IMG/VR virus record: IMGVR_UViG_3300017971_000203
Direction: 5' to 3' (one strand)
DNA from: a virus
Length of the DNA: 64,000 nt
Both the position numbers and the translations under genes were made by a program. Numbering within the stretch: position 1 is the stretch's first letter; the number at the start of each line of letters is the position of its first letter. The notes under the pieces are model-generated. The model did not search any database. It saw nothing but the letters and a program-made list of their open reading frames with translations, and was not told the DNA's origin. Below are positions 7,917 to 20,268 of the stretch, one piece after another.

Positions 7917-9236
7917 TTACACCTTCGTGAAAAGCCACTTGCGGGCGGCTTCTGCGATGCCCTTGGCGACTTGCTTCCACTCCAGTCCGGCCACTTCGAG
8001 CTCGGCTTCGCTCTCCTTGATGACGTCGGCGTTGAAGGCCTTCAGGAAAAGCCCGGTGCCGCGCTTCGTTGGAGCCTCGTCACCGAACACCTCCCCCAGG
8101 ATCTGCTCGCACCGGGCCTCGGTCACGAACATCTCGACGAAGCCTTCGATGCTCTCGGCCACCTCCGGTGCGATCTGGACCGGGGCCTTCTGCTGCACCA
8201 CAGAGTGCTTCTCACCCTTCGTCTTGAACATCAGCTCATGCGCCGGAAGGTACCACGGGAGTGGGTCACCGTTCCCACAGGACACTGGATACCAAACCAA
8301 CCCCTCGCCGACGCCCGAAATGCCGAACGTCTCCTTGACCCAGGTGTCCTCGGCCTCGACGCGCCTCACACAGCCCGCCATGAAACGAGCGTTCTTCTCC
8401 AGGGACTCGCTACTTCCGAAGTCAATCTCCACATAGGAGCTGTACCAGGGCAAGATGAACACGTCCGGGTGAGGCTGGGAACAGAGCGTTTCGATCACGC
8501 CCGGCTCCGTCACCATCTCCGCCTCGTGGTCGAAGCCAACCTGGACGCCGAAGACCACGAAGATCTTCCGGTCGAGCTTCGAAACTGCCATACCCCGCTG
8601 CACACCGGGGCCGCACCACTCTCCGAAGAACGTGAGAGGCTTCGGAGCACCGAGATACTGCTCCCAGTAGTCCCGGTTCTTTTCCACCCAGGCCCGGAAG
8701 CCCTTGTTGTCCTTCACCTCGGGCGTGAGGATACACTTACGGCTCTGCGCCGTAATCCGGCCACCGGCGATCTGAATCGCAGCGTTCGTCCCATGGAGCT
8801 TCACCTTGGCGCAGTAGGACACAACAGGAGGCTTGTACTCCGCACCGACGTGCTCCGCGATCCCCTGAAGGTTCCGAAGCACGTTGTGCAAGAGCTCGAT
8901 CGCTGGCCACTTCACGTGTCGAGGCTTCGTCTTCGGGGAGTAGTCGTCGTGACAGAAGAATTCCGTCAGGTCCGCTCCCTCCTCGTGGTCGGCCTTGTTC
9001 AGGATCATCCCGTAGGACGCCAGACCTCTGAACTTCGCTTTCTTCACCTCGGTACCGTCCCGCAGGATAGCACCCGGGAGCGCCACCGCGACGAGCTCCC
9101 CCTCCTCGTAGATGTGGTCCGAGTTCGCCACCACCTGGACCAACTTCGAATCACCCACAGCGAGGTCGTACACCCAGAGCGTGTCCGCGTTCGGGTGCTT
9201 CTTCCGGGTCTCTACTCGCATCGCTTTCACTGGCAT
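7917..9236 (-). CDS. RNA ligase (Rnl2/DraRnl-like) with N-terminal tRNA-binding OB domain
   Basis: KHPNADTL...VALPGAIL...FRGLASYGMIL (PheT/EMAP-like); ligase motifs KVKLHGTN, FGEWCG, GEGLVW, FKTK. Confidence 0.88.
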   Translation of the reverse strand: MPVKAMRVETRKKHPNADTLWVYDLAVGDSKLVQVVANSDHIYEEGELVAVALPGAILRDGTEVKKAKFRGLASYGMILNKADHEEGADLTEFFCHDDYSPKTKPRHVKWPAIELLHNVLRNLQGIAEHVGAEYKPPVVSYCAKVKLHGTNAAIQIAGGRITAQSRKCILTPEVKDNKGFRAWVEKNRDYWEQYLGAPKPLTFFGEWCGPGVQRGMAVSKLDRKIFVVFGVQVGFDHEAEMVTEPGVIETLCSQPHPDVFILPWYSSYVEIDFGSSESLEKNARFMAGCVRRVEAEDTWVKETFGISGVGEGLVWYPVSCGNGDPLPWYLPAHELMFKTKGEKHSVVQQKAPVQIAPEVAESIEGFVEMFVTEARCEQILGEVFGDEAPTKRGTGLFLKAFNADVIKESEAELEVAGLEWKQVAKGIAEAARKWLFTKV

Positions 9237-9825
9237 TGTCCATCTCCTTCTTGTTGGGGACACCCCCACCAACGCCCCGTGCTGCCCGGTGTACCCTAGT
9301 CTTCGGACCCGTCTTTCGGAGCGTACTTCTGAGCCAGCCGAGCCAGCTCCTCCCGTTCTTTCTGCTCCTTTGCCTCGGCCTGCTGCTTCTTGAGCTCCTC
9401 GAGCGAGGTTTTCCGAAGCGCCCTCACATCGAAGGTCCAGATCGCTCGGGCCTCGATGAGCTGCGCAACTTCGATGATGCTCTCATTCCGCGTCCAGCGG
9501 TCCCTATGTGCGCCGAGGAGAGACCATTCCGAGAAGTTGTAGTGCTCGAGCACGTAGGCCTCGGCCTCTTCCATGGTGTCCATCGGGAGCACTTCGAGGC
9601 ATTCGTTGCAGCCCCAGGGCGCGTGCTTGCACCCCTGGTCGCCCTTGATCCGGAGCAGAAACCGGTGCTCTGGCGGCTCGGGCTCAGGCGACTCGGACTC
9701 TTCTTCTTCTTTGGCCCGCATCTCTATCTGACCGATCCACTTCAGGATGCGCTTCAACCAGGTTCTGTCCTGGGTGCCCCAGTGGCCGAACTCCAGCTCT
9801 TCTTCGATCCGCTCCTCGAGCTCTT

Positions 9826-10329: not shown

Positions 10330-10856
10330 GGCCGAGCATCCTTGGAAGCCTGCACTGAGCTCCACACGAACTCCGCCTTGGCCCGGTTACATCCTAGCCT
10401 CTGCATGCACACAGCGACGCTTTTTTCGCGGTCGTCCCCGATCATGTCGAGGAGCTCCCTCCGGGACAGTCCGAACTCCGCCATACCTTCCTGAATGGAC
10501 GCCTCACGATCCTCCAGTTGGGCGACCACTTTCTTCATGTGCTCGTCGACGGGGTTCGAAACGCGGGGCACCTCGAGCTCCTGGACGAGCTCCGAGAGCC
10601 ACTCATCGTCAGGCAAAGTGTCCCGATAGCCGGCGACGATCTCTTCGGTGCTGTAACCCGGAGGAACGGCGCACCAGAGCGCCACTTTGGCCCGACTGAC
10701 ATCCCTATCGGTCTCGAGCCGCCAGACCTCTCCGGTCCACTCGGCGTAGCACAGGGCGTAGTTCGTGATCACCAGGGATTCGTTCATCTTCACGTAGGCC
10801 AACAGGCGAAACCCCGCCAGGGGCCGGTCCTTGAAGGTCTTCCAGTTCAGCTGCAT
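10326..10856 (-). CDS. Hypothetical protein
   Basis: 176-aa ORF; SD GGAG. Confidence 0.65.
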   Translation of the reverse strand: MQLNWKTFKDRPLAGFRLLAYVKMNESLVITNYALCYAEWTGEVWRLETDRDVSRAKVALWCAVPPGYSTEEIVAGYRDTLPDDEWLSELVQELEVPRVSNPVDEHMKKVVAQLEDREASIQEGMAEFGLSRRELLDMIGDDREKSVAVCMQRLGCNRAKAEFVWSSVQASKDARP

Positions 10857-11440
10857 TCTTCTGTCTCCTTTTCTTTCAGAGCCCTCTGAAGGGTGCCCCT
10901 CGGGATGCCTAGGAGCTTGCTCACTTTCCGTTGGGAGTAGCCCTTGCCAAAGAGCTCTTCCACGGCTTCTAGGTCGGTCTCTACCCTGGGACGCCCGACG
11001 TGTGTCCCGTTGGCCTTAGCGTGCTGCATACCGGCCTTGACCCGCTCCCTGATGGTGTCGCGTTCGAACTCGGCGAAGGCGGCCACGATGGTGAAGAACA
11101 TCTTTCCGGCGGCACTGGTCGTGTCGATGGTCTCCCGGAGGGACACGAAGTCGACGCTGTGCTCCTGGAAGGTCTCCAAGGCGGTCACGAGCTGCCGTGT
11201 GCTCCGGGCGAAGCGGTCGAACTTCCACACAAGGACTACGTCCAGCTTCCCGGTGATCGCATCCTTCATGAGCTTGTCGAGCGCCTTCCTGGAGGCCTTC
11301 GCACCGGAGACACCTTCGTCGACGTACTCCCTGTGCTTCCAGCCGTTGAGCTCCACGTACTTGCGGAGCTCCTCAAGCTGCATCTCGACGCTCTGATCCT
11401 TCGTGGACACCCTGGCGTAGATCCCGGCCCGCTTTTTCAT
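10847..11440 (-). CDS. Small serine recombinase (resolvase/invertase) with C-terminal HTH
   Basis: YARVST..Q...Q, DEGVSG, VWKFDRFARS, AEFERDTIRERVKAG, GRP, HTH. Confidence 0.95.
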   Translation of the reverse strand: MKKRAGIYARVSTKDQSVEMQLEELRKYVELNGWKHREYVDEGVSGAKASRKALDKLMKDAITGKLDVVLVWKFDRFARSTRQLVTALETFQEHSVDFVSLRETIDTTSAAGKMFFTIVAAFAEFERDTIRERVKAGMQHAKANGTHVGRPRVETDLEAVEELFGKGYSQRKVSKLLGIPRGTLQRALKEKETEECS

Positions 11441-12900: not shown

Positions 12901-14106
12901 TCACCAGCTTCCATCGCGAACGGTCTCTGTGTCGACCACCTTCGGGGTGCCGCAACTGACGACCTCCTCGACCGGGGCGCTCGAATCGTCCTGTTGACCC
13001 TCTAAGCCCTTGTCCTTGTCCATCTCGGAGATGGTCTTCACCTTGCCCAGCGTCTCGGAGGCCTCCACGTCACCAAGGTCCTTGTCGTAGAGGTCGAACC
13101 AGGGGATCCCGGCCGCGAAGTACTCGTCCTTGCCGATGGGGCTCGGGGGCGGCGCTTCGCCGGTGATCTGCTGGTACATCTCCGCGTTCACCAGGTGGAC
13201 GAACACGCGCTGCTTGCAGTCCTGGTCCCAGACATGGACACCGTGGGGGTCGGGATAGACCTGCTGACGCATCGAGCCGCCCGCACCCATCCCCATCAGA
13301 GCCGCCTTCGGGGCGTTCTCCTGGAAGCTCCTCTTCGCGTGTCTCCGAATCACCGTGGGCTTGATGGCGTGCCTCATGAAGCCCTTGGCAACGCCTTCAG
13401 GGGCTCCCGCAGGCGCAGTGCTGCACAGGACCGCGCTCTCGAGGGTGTGCCCGCCGCTGGTCTTCACTTCCCCGGAGTAGCTCTCGAAGCCGTCGTCGCC
13501 GTCCCAGCCGAGGCTCTGCCCGGAGGCTCCGCCAGCAGTCGCAAAGCCGCCCTTCGCGACACCGCGGGAGCGCGTGCCTCTGCGCTTCTTGGGCTTCGGG
13601 AAGTGCTCTCGCTTGCCCGGGTAGACGGCCAGCTGCAGGCCGCCGTGCTTCTCCTCACCCGTGACCTGACCTTCCACGGTATAGCCCATGCCCAGGGGCA
13701 TCGCCACGAACTGGCTGACCTTGCCCTCTTCGGACTTGATGCCGTCGATCCACTTCTGGGGCGGAGCCACGAGGTAGTCCTGCTTGTCCTCGCTGAGACC
13801 GTCCTTCCAGGGCTCACCCGTGATGGCGTCGATCTTCCCGACGCCAACCTTCACGGCGCAGGGCGCGTGCGTGCGCAGTCCGAACTGGATCCACATCGCT
13901 TCGCGCTGGTGGAGCGGCAGGAACACGCCGCCCTTCTCCACCCAGCTGGGCGGCACCTTGTCCTTGTAGTCGTCGATGCGCTTGAGAGGGAAGCGTCCGA
14001 CCGAGCGTGGCAGGGGGTAGGTCTTTCCGTCCTCCGGGAGCCGGAAGGTTCTGTGGAAGACCACGATCAGGTTCTCTGTGTGCAGTTCATTGCCGATGAC
14101 TTTCAT
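12901..14106 (-). CDS. Conserved hypothetical protein (FxRTxRxPxDGxxYxLP family)
   Basis: FHRTFRLPEDGKTYPLP, QREAMWI, QDYLVAPPQKWIDG, QFVAMPLGMGYTVEGQVTG, GAGG, PWFDLY. Confidence 0.8.
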   Translation of the reverse strand: MKVIGNELHTENLIVVFHRTFRLPEDGKTYPLPRSVGRFPLKRIDDYKDKVPPSWVEKGGVFLPLHQREAMWIQFGLRTHAPCAVKVGVGKIDAITGEPWKDGLSEDKQDYLVAPPQKWIDGIKSEEGKVSQFVAMPLGMGYTVEGQVTGEEKHGGLQLAVYPGKREHFPKPKKRRGTRSRGVAKGGFATAGGASGQSLGWDGDDGFESYSGEVKTSGGHTLESAVLCSTAPAGAPEGVAKGFMRHAIKPTVIRRHAKRSFQENAPKAALMGMGAGGSMRQQVYPDPHGVHVWDQDCKQRVFVHLVNAEMYQQITGEAPPPSPIGKDEYFAAGIPWFDLYDKDLGDVEASETLGKVKTISEMDKDKGLEGQQDDSSAPVEEVVSCGTPKVVDTETVRDGSW

Positions 14107-14369
14107 GTCGTCTCCTCGTAGTGGCGGGGCCTCCGCCCCTGCAAACTCGAAAGCTCAAGCGGGTTACGAAGTCGTCTGTGGCCGCAAAGGAAGAGCGGTG
14201 CCCCGAGTGGAACTGGATATCGAGACCGCCGCGAAAGGTGCTGCCCATGACGATTCTGTGTGTGTCGTCCCAGTAGTGGACCCGGATGACATCTTCAGGA
14301 TCCGGGGCCTCAGTGAACTCGAGAGCCGAGAAGCCCTGAGACAGCTCTCTCCAGCGGAACGTGCCCACA
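14087..14369 (-). other. Cassette 14, terminal module in the continued linker frame
   Basis: ...HRIVMGSTFRGGLDIQFHSGHRSSFAATDDFVTRLSFRVCRGG... in ORF 14087..14998. Confidence 0.7.
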
Positions 14370-14583
14370 TCACCCCCGTGCGATCCGGAAGCCGACATCG
14401 CTGCCTGCTCCGATCTGGTGTTCGTCGAGGCGTCCATCGTGCTCGAGGAAGTCTCGGTCGTGGGTGCGCACGTAGATGACATTGTTGTAGCAGAAGCCTT
14501 TGAGGAGGGACTTGTAGGAGGCGGTCCGGGGCCTCGGTCCGTTCCCGAGGGGCCAGGGGTTCGGGATCTCAGGCCAAAAGTGG
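14370..14583 (-). other. Cassette 13, placed in 0 frame by a 1-nt insertion in its heptamer (CC[A]CTTTT)
   Basis: HFWPEIPNPW...LLKGFCYNN...SDVGFRIARG*. Confidence 0.8.
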
Positions 14584-17405
14584 CGGCGATCACCCGTAGC
14601 AGATCCGGAAGCCGACGATGTCGTGAGGACTCCCTGGGTAGAAGTTCTCGTCGTGGTAGTAGTTGGTCCGCTTGTGGAGAGTGCCGTCGCTTCTGTTCCG
14701 GTCCCACCAGGACCCGCCCCGGAGACTCCAAAAGGGCGGGGCTCACCCCCAGCAGATCCGGAAGCCCGTGAAGAAGATGCCACGTGGTCGGAGGCTCCCG
14801 TTCCGTCGTCCGAGATGGATCCGGAGAGCGTTCGTGAAGCGGGAGTAGCACTCGCCTCTTCGAACGCGGCGCCGAAAGGGCGCTTACCCTCTGCAAACCC
14901 GGAATCCGATGATGTAGAGCTTTCCTGTGATTCTCCATACCGTGCTGCATCTGCCGAGGGGTTGGAAGTCCTCTGAGAACCACGAGTTCCCTCGGCACCT
15001 GCTAAAGGGCCCCTACCCCCAGCAGATCCGGAAACCTTTGCCCCAGGAGTTGTCGGCGAAAGGTTCGGAGTCACGCTTCGCGACGCTGGCGACACCTCTG
15101 AAGAGGCTGCTGGCGAAGCCTCGCCCGGTCTTGGCGACAGGGAAGACGAAGTGTCGAAAGGGCGCTCAAGTACCTCCGTCGGATCGGACGATCCGGAATC
15201 CGAGCAGCTTGTCGGACATGGTTGTGAGCCCGGTTCCCCGGGCGTTGAGACGGAGGGAGACCGCGGAGCCGCCCCCTCGACAGATCGGGATCCAGACAAA
15301 GGGCGGCGCTCACCCCCAGCAGATCCGGAAGCCGGCGCTGGTCCAGTCCCCGAACTCACGCCCCTGTCTTCGGCGGGATGCGGAAGGCTGGAGTCGCATC
15401 CAGGACCCCGCTCGGACGACCCGAAAGGGACAGCGTCCTCCTCATCCTCGGCAGATCCGGAATCCGCGCCGCTGGTGGGCCCAGCTTCGTCGTGGGGAGA
15501 AGCACTTCCCAGACAGTCGCACGCGCGCGTAGACGGCGTCGAAACACCCTCCCCGGGGCTTGCCATACGGCTCCCGCCAGGGCTCCCCGGAAAAGGGTGA
15601 TCACCCCCAACAGATCCGGAAGCCGATATGATGGGCCCGGGTCCACATGGTGCGGGGGGTCTTTCTCCCGGGTCGCAAATTGTGGGGAGGGTACGGGTGT
15701 GCTGCATCGAGCCATGCGCCCCCTCGGAGGAAGCGGTCCCGAGGAAAGGGTCAGGAGTGTCCTCCTCGACAGATCCGGAAGCCCCAGCGGCCGGCTGCTC
15801 CTCTTCCGTATCCTCTGATGGAGAGCCGTCCGAGAGCGGGGGTAAAGAACTCGATGAGGTAGATCCCCCGCTCCCCGAGTCGAAAGGGCGATCAACCTCG
15901 GGCGATTCGAAAACCCTTACCAAATGAGGAGGAGGCGAAGGGCTCGGATGACCGCTTCGCGAGGCTGGCGACGCCCCTGTAGTAGACGCTGGCGAAGCCC
16001 CGCCCGACCTTGGCGAAGGGGCTCGGTCCTCGAGCGACCCGGTCGGCCTCTGTGGTCTCTCCCCAGGGACGAAAGGGCGGCGATTACCCCTGGGATCGGA
16101 CGATCCGGAAGCCGAGGAGCGTCCCCTTGTACTCGGGGTAGCTCCCAGGGCCTCGGTGGGCGATCCGGGCTCCGTGACCAGAGGAGAGTTCCCTGAACAA
16201 GCGTCCGCCTCGGAAGTTGGCACTTCGAAAGGGCGCCGTCTACCCCCGGCAGATCCTGAACCCTGGTCGAACGGTGTAGAAGACGTAGGTCTCGAGCTCG
16301 ATGTACCAGGACTTGAAGCCCTCGGGGTGTTGGTTCCCGAGCCACTCGCGGCGGGACAATCGGAGGGGTGGGTCGGGGTAGAAAGCGCCGCGGAGAGTGA
16401 GGGATCGCCGTGCCCAAAAGGGAGCTCAACCTCGGCAGAGCCGACGCCCTCGGGGTCCGGCTCGGGCGTCTGGGACGAGGCTGAGTCTGGAGAGGGGCAG
16501 GGGCCAGTCGAGAGAGGAAGTCGTTCGATCTCGAAATTGACCTCCGCGGGCTCTCCGCGCTGGTGCCGTTTCTTCGACGTCACCTGCCTCATGGGAGGGT
16601 CCGGCTTCTGCTCCGCCATAGTGATGTCGGGCTTCGCGTGCTTCATGTGTTCGGCGTATTCGTCCCAGCACCACTCCCAGACGTTCCCCAGGCAGTCGTA
16701 GAGGCCCCACCTGTTCGGAGCCAGCTGCCGAACCGCATGAGTCCGACCATCTGAGTTCTGGTCAAACCAGGCGATCTCTTCCAGAGACGCCTCGCGCCAC
16801 TCGACTTCGCCACCACACCGGTCGCACACCCCAATCTCGTACCGCGCACCGTCGCTGCCCGCCCTGGCGGCGTACTCCCACTCCACCTCGGACGGGATCC
16901 GGAAGCCCGGGCCCTCCTTCCACAGGTAGCCCTGCTGGCGGTCCCCGATGTACGCGGGCGGTAAACCGCAGCGCTCCGAGAGCGCGTTGCAATACTCGAT
17001 GGCGTCGTACCAGCTCACGCACTCCACCGGGCGCTCGAGAGGATTGTCGCCCTGCTGGAAGTGGCTGGGGTTCTTCCCCATCACCGCTGCGTACTCGGAC
17101 TGCGTGACCGGCGCAGAAGCCATCCAGTACGTGTTCTCGATCGTCACCTCGATCTGATGCTCGTTCCGCCACCGACCATCTTCGTCCGGCGGACTGCCCA
17201 ACACGTCCGTACCGGCAGGGATCTCCACCAGCTCCGGGATCACAACGCCCTCCAGACGTGCGAGGTCAAGGCGCGCGAGCACGTCCCCTCCCCGGCTGCG
17301 AAGCCGCAGGAACTCCCGGAGAGCCGCCTCGTCATTGTCCACCGCCAGCTTCCCCAAGCGCTCGAGCTGCCGCACGTTGGTCGTTGATTCTCTCGTTGTC
17401 TCCAC
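14370..17405 (-). CDS. FGE-sulfatase (SUMF1/C-type lectin fold) protein, 0-frame product with long Ser/Gly/Pro linker; parent of frameshift isoform array
   Basis: Motifs IPAG..LGSP, PVTQSEY, PVECVSWYDAIEYCN, RIPSEVEWEYAARAG, PNRWGLYDCLGNVWEWCWD; ends VGFRIARG*. GTG start at 17405 follows SD GGAGGGG. Confidence 0.93.
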   Translation of the reverse strand: METTRESTTNVRQLERLGKLAVDNDEAALREFLRLRSRGGDVLARLDLARLEGVVIPELVEIPAGTDVLGSPPDEDGRWRNEHQIEVTIENTYWMASAPVTQSEYAAVMGKNPSHFQQGDNPLERPVECVSWYDAIEYCNALSERCGLPPAYIGDRQQGYLWKEGPGFRIPSEVEWEYAARAGSDGARYEIGVCDRCGGEVEWREASLEEIAWFDQNSDGRTHAVRQLAPNRWGLYDCLGNVWEWCWDEYAEHMKHAKPDITMAEQKPDPPMRQVTSKKRHQRGEPAEVNFEIERLPLSTGPCPSPDSASSQTPEPDPEGVGSAEVELPFGHGDPSLSAALSTPTHPSDCPAASGSGTNTPRASSPGTSSSRPTSSTPFDQGSGSAGGRRRPFEVPTSEADACSGNSPLVTEPGSPTEALGATPSTRGRSSASGSSDPRGNRRPFVPGERPQRPTGSLEDRAPSPRSGGASPASTTGASPASRSGHPSPSPPPHLVRVFESPEVDRPFDSGSGGSTSSSSLPPLSDGSPSEDTEEEQPAAGASGSVEEDTPDPFLGTASSEGAHGSMQHTRTLPTICDPGERPPAPCGPGPIISASGSVGGDHPFPGSPGGSRMASPGEGVSTPSTRACDCLGSASPHDEAGPTSGADSGSAEDEEDAVPFGSSERGPGCDSSLPHPAEDRGVSSGTGPAPASGSAGGERRPLSGSRSVEGAAPRSPSVSTPGEPGSQPCPTSCSDSGSSDPTEVLERPFDTSSSLSPRPGEASPAASSEVSPASRSVTPNLSPTTPGAKVSGSAGGRGPLAGAEGTRGSQRTSNPSADAARYGESQESSTSSDSGFAEGKRPFGAAFEEASATPASRTLSGSISDDGTGASDHVASSSRASGSAGGEPRPFGVSGAGPGGTGTEATALSTSGPTTTTTRTSTQGVLTTSSASGSATGDRRHFWPEIPNPWPLGNGPRPRTASYKSLLKGFCYNNVIYVRTHDRDFLEHDGRLDEHQIGAGSDVGFRIARG
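14590..14736 (-). other. Cassette 12 (-1 frame, CCCTTTT)
   Basis: PFWSLRGGSWWDRNRSDGTLHKRTNYYHDENFYPGSPHDIVGFRICYG*; canonical RGGSW...GFR. Confidence 0.92.
14743..14880 (-). other. Cassette 11 (-1 frame, CCCTTTC)
   Basis: PFRRRVRRGECYSRFTNALRIHLGRRNGSLRPRGIFFTGFRICWG*. Confidence 0.87.
14884..15009 (-). other. Cassette 10 (-1 frame, CCCTTTA)
   Basis: PFSRCRGNSWFSEDFQPLGRCSTVWRITGKLYIIGFRVCRG*. Confidence 0.87.
15013..15162 (-). other. Cassette 9 (-1 frame, CCCTTTC), paralog of cassette 3
   Basis: PFRHFVFPVAKTGRGFASSLFRGVASVAKRDSEPFADNSWGKGFRICWG*. Confidence 0.87.
15166..15303 (-). other. Cassette 8 (-1 frame, CCCTTTG)
   Basis: PFVWIPICRGGGSAVSLRLNARGTGLTTMSDKLLGFRIVRSDGGT*. Confidence 0.85.
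15310..15429 (-). other. Cassette 7 (-1 frame, CCCTTTC)
   Basis: PFRVVRAGSWMRLQPSASRRRQGREFGDWTSAGFRICWG*. Confidence 0.9.
15442..15597 (-). other. Cassette 6 (-1 frame, CCCTTTT)
   Basis: PFSGEPWREPYGKPRGGCFDAVYARVRLSGKCFSPRRSWAHQRRGFRICRG*. Confidence 0.87.
15601..15750 (-). other. Cassette 5 (-1 frame, CCCTTTC)
   Basis: PFPRDRFLRGGAWLDAAHPYPPHNLRPGRKTPRTMWTRAHHIGFRICWG*. Confidence 0.9.
15751..15888 (-). other. Cassette 4 (-1 frame, CCCTTTC)
   Basis: PFRLGERGIYLIEFFTPALGRLSIRGYGRGAAGRWGFRICRGGHS*. Confidence 0.85.
15892..16077 (-). other. Cassette 3 (-1 frame, CCCTTTC)
   Basis: PFRPWGETTEADRVARGPSPFAKVGRGFASVYYRGVASLAKRSSEPFASSSFGKGFRIARG*. Confidence 0.87.
16084..16233 (-). other. Cassette 2 (-1 frame, CCCTTTC)
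   Basis: PFRSANFRGGRLFRELSSGHGARIAHRGPGSYPEYKGTLLGFRIVRSQG*. Confidence 0.87.
16240..16422 (-). other. Cassette 1 (-1 frame, CCCTTTT)
   Basis: PFWARRSLTLRGAFYPDPPLRLSRREWLGNQHPEGFKSWYIELETYVFYTVRPGFRICRG*. Confidence 0.85.
16426..16599 (-). other. Cassette 0 (-1 frame, degenerate entry CCCTCCC)
   Basis: PSHEAGDVEETAPARRARGGQFRDRTTSSLDWPLPLSRLSLVPDARAGPRGRRLCRG*. Confidence 0.55.
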
Positions 17406-17422
17406 CGTCCCCTCCGTTGGTC

Positions 17423-17722
17423 TCAGTTCTGAAGCCGCTGTCGCTGGCCCTTGAACCACAAGCCCGAGTCCTGCTCCTTTTGGTTGTCGTAGCTCTCCAC
17501 GTCCCAGTCGGCGTGGTAGAACGTGACCCGCACGAGGTTCTGCTCCTGGTGATCCAGGTTGAGCGGAAGGTCGCGCCACGAGATGCGGCACCCATACGGG
17601 TCCTTCGCCAGACGCTCATTGATAGCCACGATCACCGGACCCAGGTCCCGCTCCTTGTTCTTCTTCCACTGCTCACGCGCACTCACTGGCGTGATTGGCT
17701 CGACTTTCTGGTTGCTGCCCAT
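17423..17722 (-). CDS. Hypothetical protein
   Basis: 99-aa ORF directly upstream of the FGE gene. Confidence 0.6.
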   Translation of the reverse strand: MGSNQKVEPITPVSAREQWKKNKERDLGPVIVAINERLAKDPYGCRISWRDLPLNLDHQEQNLVRVTFYHADWDVESYDNQKEQDSGLWFKGQRQRLQN

Positions 17723-17737
17723 CGGTCTACGTCTCCT

Positions 17738-17962
17738 TCACCAATCCCCGTCATGTACTTCGAGGTCCTGCTTCGAAGCCTCGATCGCCCTCACAATCAC
17801 CTCCTCTCGGATCTCCAGGAGCTCTGATGCCAGCGCGTGCAAGACCAGCTCCGTGATCGCCTTGCTCCTGCTGATCCCGCCCCGATGCCGGCAGTACGAA
17901 TCCACCCGCTCCAGCATCGCCGTCAGGGTGTACAAGCACACCCGAGCTGTGTCACGCCCCAC
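17738..17962 (-). CDS. Ribbon-helix-helix protein
   Basis: LERVDSYCRHRGGISRSKAITELV. Confidence 0.6.
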   Translation of the reverse strand: MGRDTARVCLYTLTAMLERVDSYCRHRGGISRSKAITELVLHALASELLEIREEVIVRAIEASKQDLEVHDGDW

Positions 17963-18015
17963 GTCATACCTCCCGTCACCCTGATGTCACACCAGAGTAG
18001 GACAACAGTCACATA

Positions 18016-18043
18016 ACTATATCGGTCGTTCCCCGGTTGTCAA
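18016..18043 (-). promoter_or_regulatory. sigma70-type promoter upstream of the RHH/FGE-array operon
   Basis: TTGACA-16-TATAGT. Confidence 0.65.
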
Positions 18044-18046
18044 GGC

Positions 18047-18253
18047 CTATGTGTCGGGGAGCTCGTCTTCTCGGTAGAAACGCCACGTAGGCATCCCGTC
18101 CGGGTCGAGCGCATTCATTACAAGATAGGCCAACGCCGTCGCACGGCTGACCTTCTGAACCCCATGCACCACGCAGAGATACTTCGCCAGAAGATCCAGG
18201 CGATCAAGGACCTCCGGCAGCAAGCGAAAAGAGGTCGGCTTCGTATTGCTCAT
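18047..18253 (-). CDS. Ribbon-helix-helix-like protein
   Basis: TSFRLLPEVLDRLD...VSRATAL. Confidence 0.55.
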   Translation of the reverse strand: MSNTKPTSFRLLPEVLDRLDLLAKYLCVVHGVQKVSRATALAYLVMNALDPDGMPTWRFYREDELPDT

Positions 18254-18369
18254 CAGCAAGACTCCTGTTAGGGTGAGTGAGCTACATCGGTGTAGTACAT
18301 ACAAAAACGTACCCGATCCGAAGCGGGAAGGGAAGGGGTATCACCGAAAGAAGGGGAGCTTGTAGGAAG

Positions 18370-20268
18370 ATGGCGACACAACGGCGGAAACTGTTCCCGG
18401 CCCTGATTGTCGATCTGACCCCCATCGAACTGGCTGCGAAGGGCCTGGTTTCGACGCATACGTTCGGCCAGCAGTTCGAGTTGCAACCAACCACTCTCAC
18501 CGCATCCGCGGGCGCGAACTATTTCCCCGCGGTTCGGACCACAGCCAAGTGCAGGGACAAGCGCTACGCCTACCCCAGGGATATGCGTTGCTACCTGGCC
18601 AGCCACAAGTTCCACACGAAAGAGGGGGAGGAACCTGTGGAACTGCCCCAGGCGCTCTTCAATGACCCCTACGACCCCCCGGGAGGGTTCAAGACCCGCC
18701 TGGACTGGAACCCGAGCTCCTGGCGCGTAGGCGACCCGTTCCCGAAATTCGACTCGGGACCTGACCTGGAAGGCTGCGAAGAACTCGAGGGGGACGAGCT
18801 CCTGAAGAAGGCGGTGGAACTTCTGGACTTCGGCTACTTCCTGAAGGCCACCGGCAAGCTCCTTGGACGGTCTCCCACAGTGCTGCGCGAACTCCTGATA
18901 GACGCCGGCGAATGGCCCCGGAAAGACCTCGGAGGCCAGAAGACTCGTAAACGGGGCGTCGTCGAAGAACCAGAGCCGGAAGAGCCGGAGCCCGAAGCAG
19001 CTGCCGAAGAGCCGCAACCGGAGCCAGAGCCGGAGCCGGAAGAGCCAGAAGCCGAGGTCGTGGATGAAGACGAAGACCTCGGAGAAGACTTCAGAGACCT
19101 AGGAGAGCCCGAGTTCAGCCCCGAAGGCATCCTGACCCTCTATTTCGAGAATCACCCCTTCCAGCTGACCGATAGCAATACACACCCCTTCGTCATCAAA
19201 GATGCTTGTGATTACCTGGAGATCCAGAACGCCCGCCAGGCTGCCGATCGGCTAGACAAGGATGATGTATGTTCAACATATATCATCGACTCGCTGGGCA
19301 GACCTCAGAAAACGCTCACCTGCAACTTCCCCGGCTACCTGGATCTCGTGATGGGGGCTCGGTCTTCGGACCGTGCACGCCCCTTCCAGCGGTGGGTAAC
19401 ACACACCGTTCTGCCCACTCTTGCCAAACTGGGGACGTACACTCTGGGACAAGAACAGGCCGCTCATGGCTCGCCGCTGCCGGGGGACCTCGAGCGCCTC
19501 TTCATGCAGCAGGCAGAGATCAACGTCCAACAATCCCGGATCAACGCCCAGCACGCCGAGACCATCTCCACCCTGGAAGAGCTGGTCGGGAAAATGATGG
19601 GGGGCATCGACGACTTCGTGAAGAGTGCTTCGAAGCGCTTCGAAGAGGTCGAAGAACGAACGGACCAAGCTGAAGAGCGTATTTCCAACCTGGAAGAAAC
19701 CCTGAAGAACGCCCTGGAAGACCCGTTCCTCGGAAACGACGCTGCGAACCAGGACAGGCACATCTTGAACGCGATCGCCAAGGCCAGGGGCATGGCCATC
19801 TTCTTCGGCACCAGCGACGGTGCCCGGATCGAAAGACAACTCCGAATTTGTCCCGAGGGCTCTCCCGAACACGACAAGCTGAAGTCCGAGAAGTGGAAAA
19901 AAGCCAGACCCCACATCAAAGGTGTATACACGGCCTTCTACCGCTACCTGCTCCGCCATTCCCGGAACCCTGTCATCGACGTGTGCGCCCGCAAACGCAG
20001 AGATGTGGAGCTCGTCAAGAAAGCCAACGGCGCCAAGGCCGCCAAACGGTTCGAAGGGATCGCTCGTCTGATCGACTACATCAGAGTCGAAGAGATGCCG
20101 GAAGCGTTGACCCTCCTGGTTCGCTCCTGTCTGGAAGAAGGGTTCTATCCCGTGCTGTTCCACGAACAACCCCGCATCCGGGAACTGATACGGGATATCC
20201 GGTACAAGAAAGAAAACAAACCGCGTGGTTCCAACGGAACGCCGCCGGAACCGCCCCCGAGCCCCTGA
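18370..20268 (+). CDS. Bro-N domain (antirepressor-like) protein with PE-rich linker and coiled coil
   Basis: PFVIKDACDYLEIQNARQA...GYLDLVMGARSSDRARPFQRWVTHTVLPTLAKLGTY. Confidence 0.82.
   Translation: MATQRRKLFPALIVDLTPIELAAKGLVSTHTFGQQFELQPTTLTASAGANYFPAVRTTAKCRDKRYAYPRDMRCYLASHKFHTKEGEEPVELPQALFNDPYDPPGGFKTRLDWNPSSWRVGDPFPKFDSGPDLEGCEELEGDELLKKAVELLDFGYFLKATGKLLGRSPTVLRELLIDAGEWPRKDLGGQKTRKRGVVEEPEPEEPEPEAAAEEPQPEPEPEPEEPEAEVVDEDEDLGEDFRDLGEPEFSPEGILTLYFENHPFQLTDSNTHPFVIKDACDYLEIQNARQAADRLDKDDVCSTYIIDSLGRPQKTLTCNFPGYLDLVMGARSSDRARPFQRWVTHTVLPTLAKLGTYTLGQEQAAHGSPLPGDLERLFMQQAEINVQQSRINAQHAETISTLEELVGKMMGGIDDFVKSASKRFEEVEERTDQAEERISNLEETLKNALEDPFLGNDAANQDRHILNAIAKARGMAIFFGTSDGARIERQLRICPEGSPEHDKLKSEKWKKARPHIKGVYTAFYRYLLRHSRNPVIDVCARKRRDVELVKKANGAKAAKRFEGIARLIDYIRVEEMPEALTLLVRSCLEEGFYPVLFHEQPRIRELIRDIRYKKENKPRGSNGTPPEPPPSP

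Follow-up and report, generated by a model that had tools for sequence, protein, structure and literature searches.

A minus-strand gene in a 64,000-nucleotide stretch of virus DNA (IMG/VR virus record IMGVR_UViG_3300017971_000203, the whole stretch being called the window below and numbered from its first letter) is best read as an array of serial programmed −1 frameshift sites, a reading to which we assign a probability of about 70%. The gene encodes most of an FGE-type C-type-lectin fold in its main frame, and candidate versions of the missing end of the fold are laid out one after another in the −1 frame, each behind a slippery heptamer. From such a layout, one mRNA would probably yield about 13 versions of the protein, 12 of them frameshift products and one made in frame. 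Serial −1 frameshifting had been put forward in an earlier inspection of the same DNA (the original prediction), and the reading is supported by the analyses reported here, since each of its testable computational predictions held.

Anatomy of the array gene

The open reading frame (ORF) of the array gene is open from 17591 down to 14370 on the minus strand. Its likely true start is a GTG at 17405, just past the stop of the upstream gene, giving a product of 1011 aa. Directly 5′ of this codon, at 17409–17420, stands the 12-mer CCAACGGAGGGG, which looks like the Shine-Dalgarno (SD)-like leader of the gene. The N-terminal part of the protein matches the Pfam FGE-sulfatase family (coordinates of this and all other features are given in Table 1). 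The match stops just past a GNVWEWCWD motif, and the last ~50 positions of the profile are not found in the main frame. Beyond this motif the main frame runs on for ~670 codons, as had been described, with no stop between the N-terminal domain and 14370. The encoded filler is rich in Ser, Pro, Gly, Ala and Thr, has an isoelectric point (pI) of 4.8 and contains 12% hydrophobic residues.

Over the same stretch, the −1 frame is tiled by 12 modules. They measure 42–63 aa, rather than the 39–61 aa of the original prediction, and −1 stops occur solely at their ends, in a mixture of TGA, TAG and TAA. Every module opens with CCC TTT, 0–4 codons past the preceding −1 stop. These 12 CCCTTT hexamers are the only minus-strand copies within 14000–16800, and they share one common phase, C_CCT_TTN of the main frame. 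The first C of each is the higher coordinate of its module in Table 1, and the seventh base of the heptamer is C in seven cases, T in three, G in one and A in one; both the positions and the counts had been listed correctly. Alignment of 37 modules revealed a shared pattern, PF..RG(G)..R..R..GFR..(R/W)G-stop, and the most canonical sequence is that of module 12 (LRGGSWW...GFRICYG). The modules thus carry the RG(G) and GFR motifs that had been attributed to them, but the stop does not follow directly upon GFR(I/V): it is located 3–10 codons later, as in GFRICRG-stop or GFRIVRSQG-stop.

At the 3′ end of the array, an extra A at 14581 breaks the heptamer of a thirteenth site, which now reads CCACTTTT, and moves module 13 into the main frame. 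A fourteenth module lies in the +1 frame. As this would be the frame of the main ORF if the extra A were removed, module 14 was once the in-frame terminus, and it is now unreachable. Of the ~13–15 alternative C-termini first proposed, 13 products therefore remain. Module 14 overlaps the first 20 nt of the next gene, which starts at ATG 14106 and encodes 401 aa without a match in Pfam or PHROG; the overlap suggests a former translational coupling of the two.

Recurrence in a second phage

The original prediction had proposed a search of related phages for CCCTTTN/GFR arrays. A scan of JGI metagenomes identified one contig of 10.9 kb, L001, which carries two arrays and has 57% identity to the window gene in the N-half. 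The larger contains 19 in-phase CCCTTTY sites, each placed after a −1 stop, in a main frame that runs without a stop through more than 1100 codons until the contig ends. Upstream of it, the same contig holds the tail of the other array, of which four sites are present. The L001 phage has, as judged from this contig, at least two array genes. Stops in the linker frame of a homolog, or lack of the heptamer, had been named as observations that would speak against frameshifting; in L001 the linker frame is open and the heptamer is there. The predicted design is thus shared by a second phage contig, independent of the window and diverged from it.

In the larger L001 array, the N-half and module 1 are separated by a nested endonuclease gene, which has its own ATG and is read in the −1 frame; no main-frame stop interrupts this stretch. 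Apart from the CCCTTTY sites, this ORF has a single in-phase heptamer, C_CCA_AAC, located 5′ of the endonuclease and three codons past a −1 stop. The nested gene may be another frameshift exit.

A further relative, P0004 (756 aa, 59–62% identical), is known from the protein alone; it has a similar filler with ..PF.. motifs and an in-frame terminal module. Residues 1–~60 (17230–17405 of the window, minus strand) contain a helical motif, R..L....D..A....LR...R.GD..A...LAR..GV..P, which is invariant in the window, L001 and P0004. Other searches returned little. A boundary pattern search of IMG/VR gave 0 matches, and arrays were absent from the other 237 of 238 loci fetched by protein-guided scans of IMG/VR, JGI metagenomes and GTDB genomes, L001 being the only one to have them. 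HMMER on 1.84 billion representatives, together with searches for proteins of near length or shorter, detected as close relatives only the window's own cluster and P0004. The small number of relatives in both DNA and protein searches indicates that the family is rare.

The modules as the missing end of the fold

It had been claimed that the RGGSW...GFR segment completes the FGE/C-type-lectin fold, and the homology searches point the same way. Module 5 alone matches the Pfam FGE-sulfatase profile at positions 214–253 of 255 (E 0.0015). A profile built from 37 modules matched nine distinct sequences of the PDB, all of them FGE-family and all at the extreme C-terminus (E 0.015–0.9). These matches include FGE (6muj and 2q17), CalU17, SUMF1, SUMF2 and TvpA (2y3c), the variable protein of a diversity-generating retroelement (DGR). 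The FGE-sulfatase domain is complete only across two frames, positions 3–204 of 255 being read in the main frame and the remainder in the modules. By these comparisons, the modules are the missing C-terminal segment of an FGE-type C-type-lectin fold. In DGR proteins with this type of fold (Mtd, TvpA, TaqVP), the variable region consists of the 40–45 C-terminal residues (PMC6328139).

Structure prediction of the N-domain together with a cassette, which had been suggested as a check, was run for module 12. The predicted complex with the N-half scored 0.92, versus 0.00 for the best of three controls; a mark of 0.92 is reached by 58 of 80 solved complexes and by 2 of 110 mismatched pairs, these counts being rough as custom alignments were used. 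Between runs, at least 91% of contacts are shared, and the partner reaches a predicted local distance difference test (pLDDT) value of at least 64. In the model, the VGFRI strand of module 12 packs on the VWEW strand of the N-half. What this modelled score shows is the likeness of the module to the solved fold, of which the two would be parts, and not binding in the cell.

FGE enzymes have a catalytic Cys pair (CxxxxC after RGGS, compare ...LCHDSYC... in 6muj), and no conserved Cys column was found in the 37-module alignment. The array protein is, on the evidence of its sequence, a binding-type and not an enzyme-type member of the FGE family.

Selection on two overlapping frames

The layout of the array is far beyond chance. 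In-phase heptamers of the X_XXY_YYZ type are found 12 times in the 1011 codons of the array ORF, versus 3 times in the 5484 codons of 13 other window genes (p=5e-8), and the 12 CCCTTTN are the sole in-phase slip heptamers of the array ORF. All 12 modules start with CCC TTT, in a phage that encodes Phe by TTT in 8% of cases and Pro by CCC in 35%. Coding for Pro-Phe in one frame fixes fewer than six bases, so that the hexamer is left unexplained by coding; a tandem-slippage site fixes all six.

In ordinary window genes, the frame equivalent to the array main frame has 29 stops per 1000 codons. To estimate the number of stops expected in the arrays, module proteins were held fixed and synonymous codons were redrawn from phage usage. 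By this procedure, the number of main-frame stops expected was 7.4 for the window array, 14.9 and 5.0 for the two L001 arrays and 1.6 for the nested endonuclease, whereas none was observed (Poisson P about 3e-13). NTG codons are avoided in the modules (CTG, 7% versus 41%; GTG, 13% versus 46%; Met, 0.5% versus 1.9%). Compared to resampled sequences, the filler is 5 standard deviations less hydrophobic and 6–11 standard deviations more acidic. Such tuning of the filler by codon choice, towards hydrophilic and acidic residues, makes sense only if the filler is translated.

Among the three frames, the codon-usage score is highest in the module frame, and the GC content at third codon positions is 0.75 in modules versus 0.76 in other genes. 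Modules 3 and 9 are the only pair of recognisable paralogs found in the window array. Their synonymous/nonsynonymous codon differences amount to 14/13 when read in the module frame, as against 5/24 and 1/24 for the main and third frames, a pattern indicative of purifying selection that is specific to the −1 frame. The interiors of the remaining modules have diverged past recognition at the DNA level and the boundaries were kept; a conserved boundary with a variable interior is the pattern that would be expected of diversified binding loops on a constant scaffold. Taken as a whole, this evidence argues that the modules are translated.

The same data bear on a simpler view, according to which only the full-length protein is made, the −1 modules being decaying relics of tandem duplication and the heptamers inherited repeat sequence devoid of function. 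The repeats clearly arose by tandem duplication, and such relics could account for the divergence of module interiors outside pair 3/9 and for the degenerate modules of L001, where B19 and A04 have no heptamer and A08 and A09 are fragments. However, relics would gain stops and indels, yet in the two phages the −1 frame is still open in about 37 modules, with spacings that are multiples of three and with the RG, R, R and GFR motifs retained. Decay also accounts neither for the purifying selection on modules 3 and 9, nor for the best codon-usage score being that of the module frame, nor for boundaries that stay conserved around hypervariable interiors. We give this view hardly any credence.

Sequence signals around the slip sites

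In E. coli, C_CC.U_UU.Y is the most efficient class of heptamers, and C_CC.U_UU.C has been named for high-level frameshifting (PMC4066793). The slip site of West Nile virus is CCCUUUU (PMC11797035). Sites of the C_CCU_UUY type make up 10 of the 12 in the window and all 23 in L001, and the heptamers are in phase in every case (12/12 and 23/23).

An SD-like purine tract is present 6–10 nt 5′ of every site. Complementarity to the anti-SD, whose use by the host is assumed, peaks sharply between −14 and −7 from the heptamer, with a mean of −6.3 kcal/mol. Stimulation by an SD-like sequence is prominent in dnaX and in ~56% of the −1 shifts of insertion sequence (IS) elements, the spacing reported for −1 shifts in E. 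coli being 9–14 nt (PMC5009743). Among Arg codons, AGR accounts for 21 of 34 in the last three codons before the module stop, versus 42 of 303 in module bodies (p=3e-9), an enrichment that argues for selection on the purine tract itself. At the decayed boundary before the first site, coding for GFRI was lost, and the GAGG tract, the stop and the heptamer were kept. On the 3′ side, the folding energy of a 40-nt window starting 5 nt after the heptamer was −11.7 kcal/mol, versus −9.9 +/− 0.6 kcal/mol at random positions of the same arrays (p about 0.001, for an offset chosen post hoc).

An SD-like tract before each module could also serve a different route of expression: non-canonical initiation, by which modules would be made as separate peptides and complement the N-half in trans; long-range bypassing; or slippage or editing at the RNA level at CCCTTT. 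Bypassing in T4 gene 60 involves an SD-like sequence near the landing site, with a modest effect (PMC5009743), and a free module docks onto the N-half in the structure prediction. However, from the preceding stop to the heptamer, no module has an ATG, GTG or TTG in its own frame, which leaves no start codon at a usable distance from the tract. Such routes also provide no reason for a linker-like main frame to remain open over 670 to more than 1100 codons, and bypassing over hundreds to thousands of nt would be without known example. As for slippage of the polymerase, the CCC and TTT runs are far shorter than the 9-nt A or T runs of bacterial transcriptional slippage (PMC5009743). That any of these routes is at work would be very surprising.

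No match to Rfam families, self-splicing introns included, was detected in 13500–18500, and no tRNA gene was found in the window. Stop codon recoding or readthrough was ruled out, as the module stops are a mixture of TGA, TAG and TAA and the other genes are normal under table 11.

Cassette exchange at the DNA level, an unlikely alternative

Tandem, co-oriented cassettes with conserved 5′ and 3′ boundaries also call to mind a silent store, from which modules would be copied or recombined into a terminal, in-frame expression site, either by conversion of the vls/pilS type or by recombinase deletion; the main frame would be open because the store lies in between, a somewhat contrived account of its openness. 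Module 13 sits in frame with cassette-like boundaries, an endonuclease gene is inserted in the L001 array, and a serine recombinase is encoded 3 kb downstream of the window array, all of which would suit such a store; no target sites of this recombinase were identified. DNA-level swapping of cassettes had been singled out as an observation that would count against frameshifting, and none was seen: a second, independent assembly agrees with the window at every base (100% identity over 9,090 bp, array included), and five contigs from independent assemblies carry the protein without variants. There are no convincing inverted repeats. A store also leaves unexplained the in-phase heptamer with a rare Phe codon at every 5′ boundary, the enrichment in AGR and SD-like sequence, and the acidic tuning of the filler. 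Finally, a conversion target needs a PF/heptamer boundary on its 5′ side, and the in-frame terminal module of array L001-A has none. For these reasons exchange from a silent store seems quite improbable.

Two other systems were considered and rejected. A DGR was discarded since scans of 34 window ORFs against Pfam or PHROGs, the phage being roughly 153 kb in all, revealed no reverse transcriptase, and no pair of template and variable repeats was found. Mismatches between modules 3 and 9 fall on A at 8 and 11 of 39 positions, and are thus not adenine-specific. An inversion system was discarded because only weak inverted matches are present (73–88% complementary) and all modules are co-oriented. 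A tblastn search of the modules against the other window genes gave noise only.

Proposed mechanism

Under serial −1 frameshifting, ribosomes would start at GTG 17405 and synthesise the N-terminal four-fifths of a non-catalytic FGE-type C-type-lectin fold, and would then go on, without change of frame, into a disordered, acidic linker rich in Ser, Pro and Gly. At each of the 12 in-phase C_CCU_UUN sites, a fraction of them would slip by −1, tRNA-Pro moving from CCU to CCC and tRNA-Phe from UUY to UUU, with the help of the SD-like tract 6–10 nt upstream and, in part, of mRNA structure beginning about 5 nt downstream. A shifted ribosome would read a single module of 42–63 aa and terminate, whereas ribosomes that never shift would end with the in-frame terminal module. 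Each product would then combine the common N-half with a linker of exit-dependent length and with a single C-terminal segment from a set of about 13; this segment would complete the fold and form its presumed ligand-binding face. We infer both the frameshifting and an efficiency proper to each site from the DNA sequence, and we propose that the products bind different ligands or receptors, possibly with a role in host range.

Several points weigh against this mechanism. In single-module Pfam scans, only 1 of 10 modules matched, the modules being short and diverged. We know of no FGE-type fold with disordered insertions inside the domain, which would here reach about 650 aa. The spacing of the SD-like tract, 6–10 nt, overlaps the reported range only partly, and it is confounded with the conserved R-G-stop codons. 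The downstream folding signal is modest, with no conserved hairpin, and GC-rich RGG codons could cause it. The host's tRNA pool and its use of the anti-SD are assumed, though the leader of the gene itself resembles an SD sequence. In two window sites the last base is G or A, which places a Leu codon in the A site, and these sites (modules 8 and 10) may be weaker slip sites. In L001, a few modules have no heptamer, as mentioned above. Finally, modules contain 15–20% Arg (pI about 11.7), with CGA as the main Arg codon, mirroring the GAN (Asp/Glu) codons of the acidic filler (window 14590–16425; L001:8087–10801); their Arg-richness is partly a by-product of the acidic overlapping frame.

Beyond the frameshifting itself, we lean towards seeing in the array a hard-wired diversity generator, in which ~13 isoforms (20 or more in the relative) would be made in shares set by slip efficiency, with no change in DNA, the zero frame having co-evolved as an acidic disordered tether. 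If true, this would be a new route to diversity beside DGRs, invertible segments and gene conversion, the ribosome choosing from a genome-encoded library within a single infection, so that each burst could carry a repertoire of binding specificities without DNA change. Programmed frameshifting, usually known for two products at a constant ratio, would be widened to systems with many exits and a dozen products or more, and the array would be among the longest known stretches selected in two overlapping frames (2 to more than 3 kb). It could serve as a test bed for the tuning of slippage site by site, for the tolerance of a lectin fold to a disordered insertion of hundreds of residues, and for bet-hedging in phage receptor use. 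It also points to a blind spot of annotation, in that gene callers output a single long low-complexity protein and none of the modules.

Comparison with known systems

The array shares many features with −1 frameshifting in bacteria and phages, as in E. coli dnaX, IS3/IS911 transposases and the tail assembly chaperone G/GT: an in-phase heptamer of an efficient class, an SD-like tract upstream, possible structure downstream, a −1 ORF without start codon, and products with a common N-terminus and different C-termini. To our knowledge, cases described so far have one site and two products. The array differs by its 12 serial sites (19 or more in L001), each leading to an interchangeable piece of a fold, with a default in-frame piece in addition. 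It also differs by its zero frame, which is an overlapping, selected linker between the sites, and by its SD spacing of 6–10 nt rather than 9–14 nt (PMC5009743). A literature search on serial or multiple frameshift arrays, or on frameshifting tied to FGE, C-type-lectin or DGR proteins, found nothing.

With DGR variable proteins (TvpA, Mtd, TaqVP), the array protein has in common the FGE-type subtype of the C-type-lectin fold and the part that is diversified; the module profile aligns to residues 255–291 of the 294 of TvpA. Diversity would differ in its source, a fixed, genome-encoded set expressed at translation instead of mutagenic retrohoming. In Mu Gin, P1 Cin and the R64 shufflon, as in the array, a constant N-terminus is joined to one of several C-termini of a binding protein, and a serine recombinase is also found near the array. 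In contrast to these systems, the array modules are co-oriented and lack inverted crossover sites, and the DNA is identical across assemblies; the choice would be made by the ribosome, and all forms would be possible in each infected cell. Borrelia vls and Neisseria pilS likewise have tandem partial cassettes with conserved boundaries and variable, stop-free interiors. The array cassettes differ in being embedded in the expressed ORF, always in the −1 phase, each preceded by a heptamer and an SD-like tract and followed by its own stop, and no variants were seen.

Genomic context

The window is phage DNA, as indicated by a Bro-N/Ant protein, HNH endonucleases and a weak match (E 5.5e-06) to the head maturation protease family. 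Positions of the array features, of two neighbouring genes and of the L001 features are collected in Table 1.

Table 1. Coordinates of the array gene, its modules and other features, in the window unless prefixed by L001.
Feature	Coordinates	Strand	Heptamer	Stop	Predicted product	Remarks
Main ORF	14370..17405	−		TGA (14370–14372)	1011 aa	GTG start 17405
N-terminal four-fifths of FGE-sulfatase/C-type-lectin fold	16623..17237	−				PF03781 positions 3–204/255, E 2.6e-37
Main-frame filler	14590..16622	−				Stop-free; overlaps −1 modules (dual-coding)
Module 1	16240..16422	−	CCCTTTT (16422–16416)	TAG	388 aa	
Module 2	16084..16233	−	CCCTTTC	TAA	440 aa	
Module 3	15892..16077	−	CCCTTTC	TGA	504 aa	Paralog of module 9
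Module 4	15751..15888	−	CCCTTTC	TGA	551 aa	
Module 5	15601..15750	−	CCCTTTC	TGA	601 aa	
Module 6	15442..15597	−	CCCTTTT	TGA	654 aa	
Module 7	15310..15429	−	CCCTTTC	TGA	698 aa	
Module 8	15166..15303	−	CCCTTTG	TGA	746 aa	A-site Leu UUG
Module 9	15013..15162	−	CCCTTTC	TAG	797 aa	Paralog of module 3
Module 10	14884..15009	−	CCCTTTA	TAA	840 aa	A-site Leu UUA
Module 11	14743..14880	−	CCCTTTC	TGA	887 aa	
Module 12	14590..14736	−	CCCTTTT	TGA	938 aa	
Former site 13	14576..14583	−	Now CCACTTTT			Extra A at 14581; same in second assembly
Module 13, terminal	14370..14582	−			1011 aa (full-length)	Main frame, without shift; ...GFRIARG-stop
Module 14	14087..14371	−		14087–14089		+1 frame; ...STFRGG...SFRVCRG...
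Serine recombinase	10847..11440	−				Resolvase N-terminal domain (E 3e-47) and C-terminal helix-turn-helix
Phage RNA ligase and putative tRNA-binding domain	7917..9272	−				PF09414 and PF01588
L001 array modules	L001:8087-10801	+				−1 modules
L001 second-array tail	L001:1-1650	+	Four in-phase CCCTTTY			Several degenerate modules; in-frame terminal module GFRVATG
L001 endonuclease gene, nested in −1 frame	L001:7478-8083	+				phrog_2340, E 6e-21; between N-half and module 1

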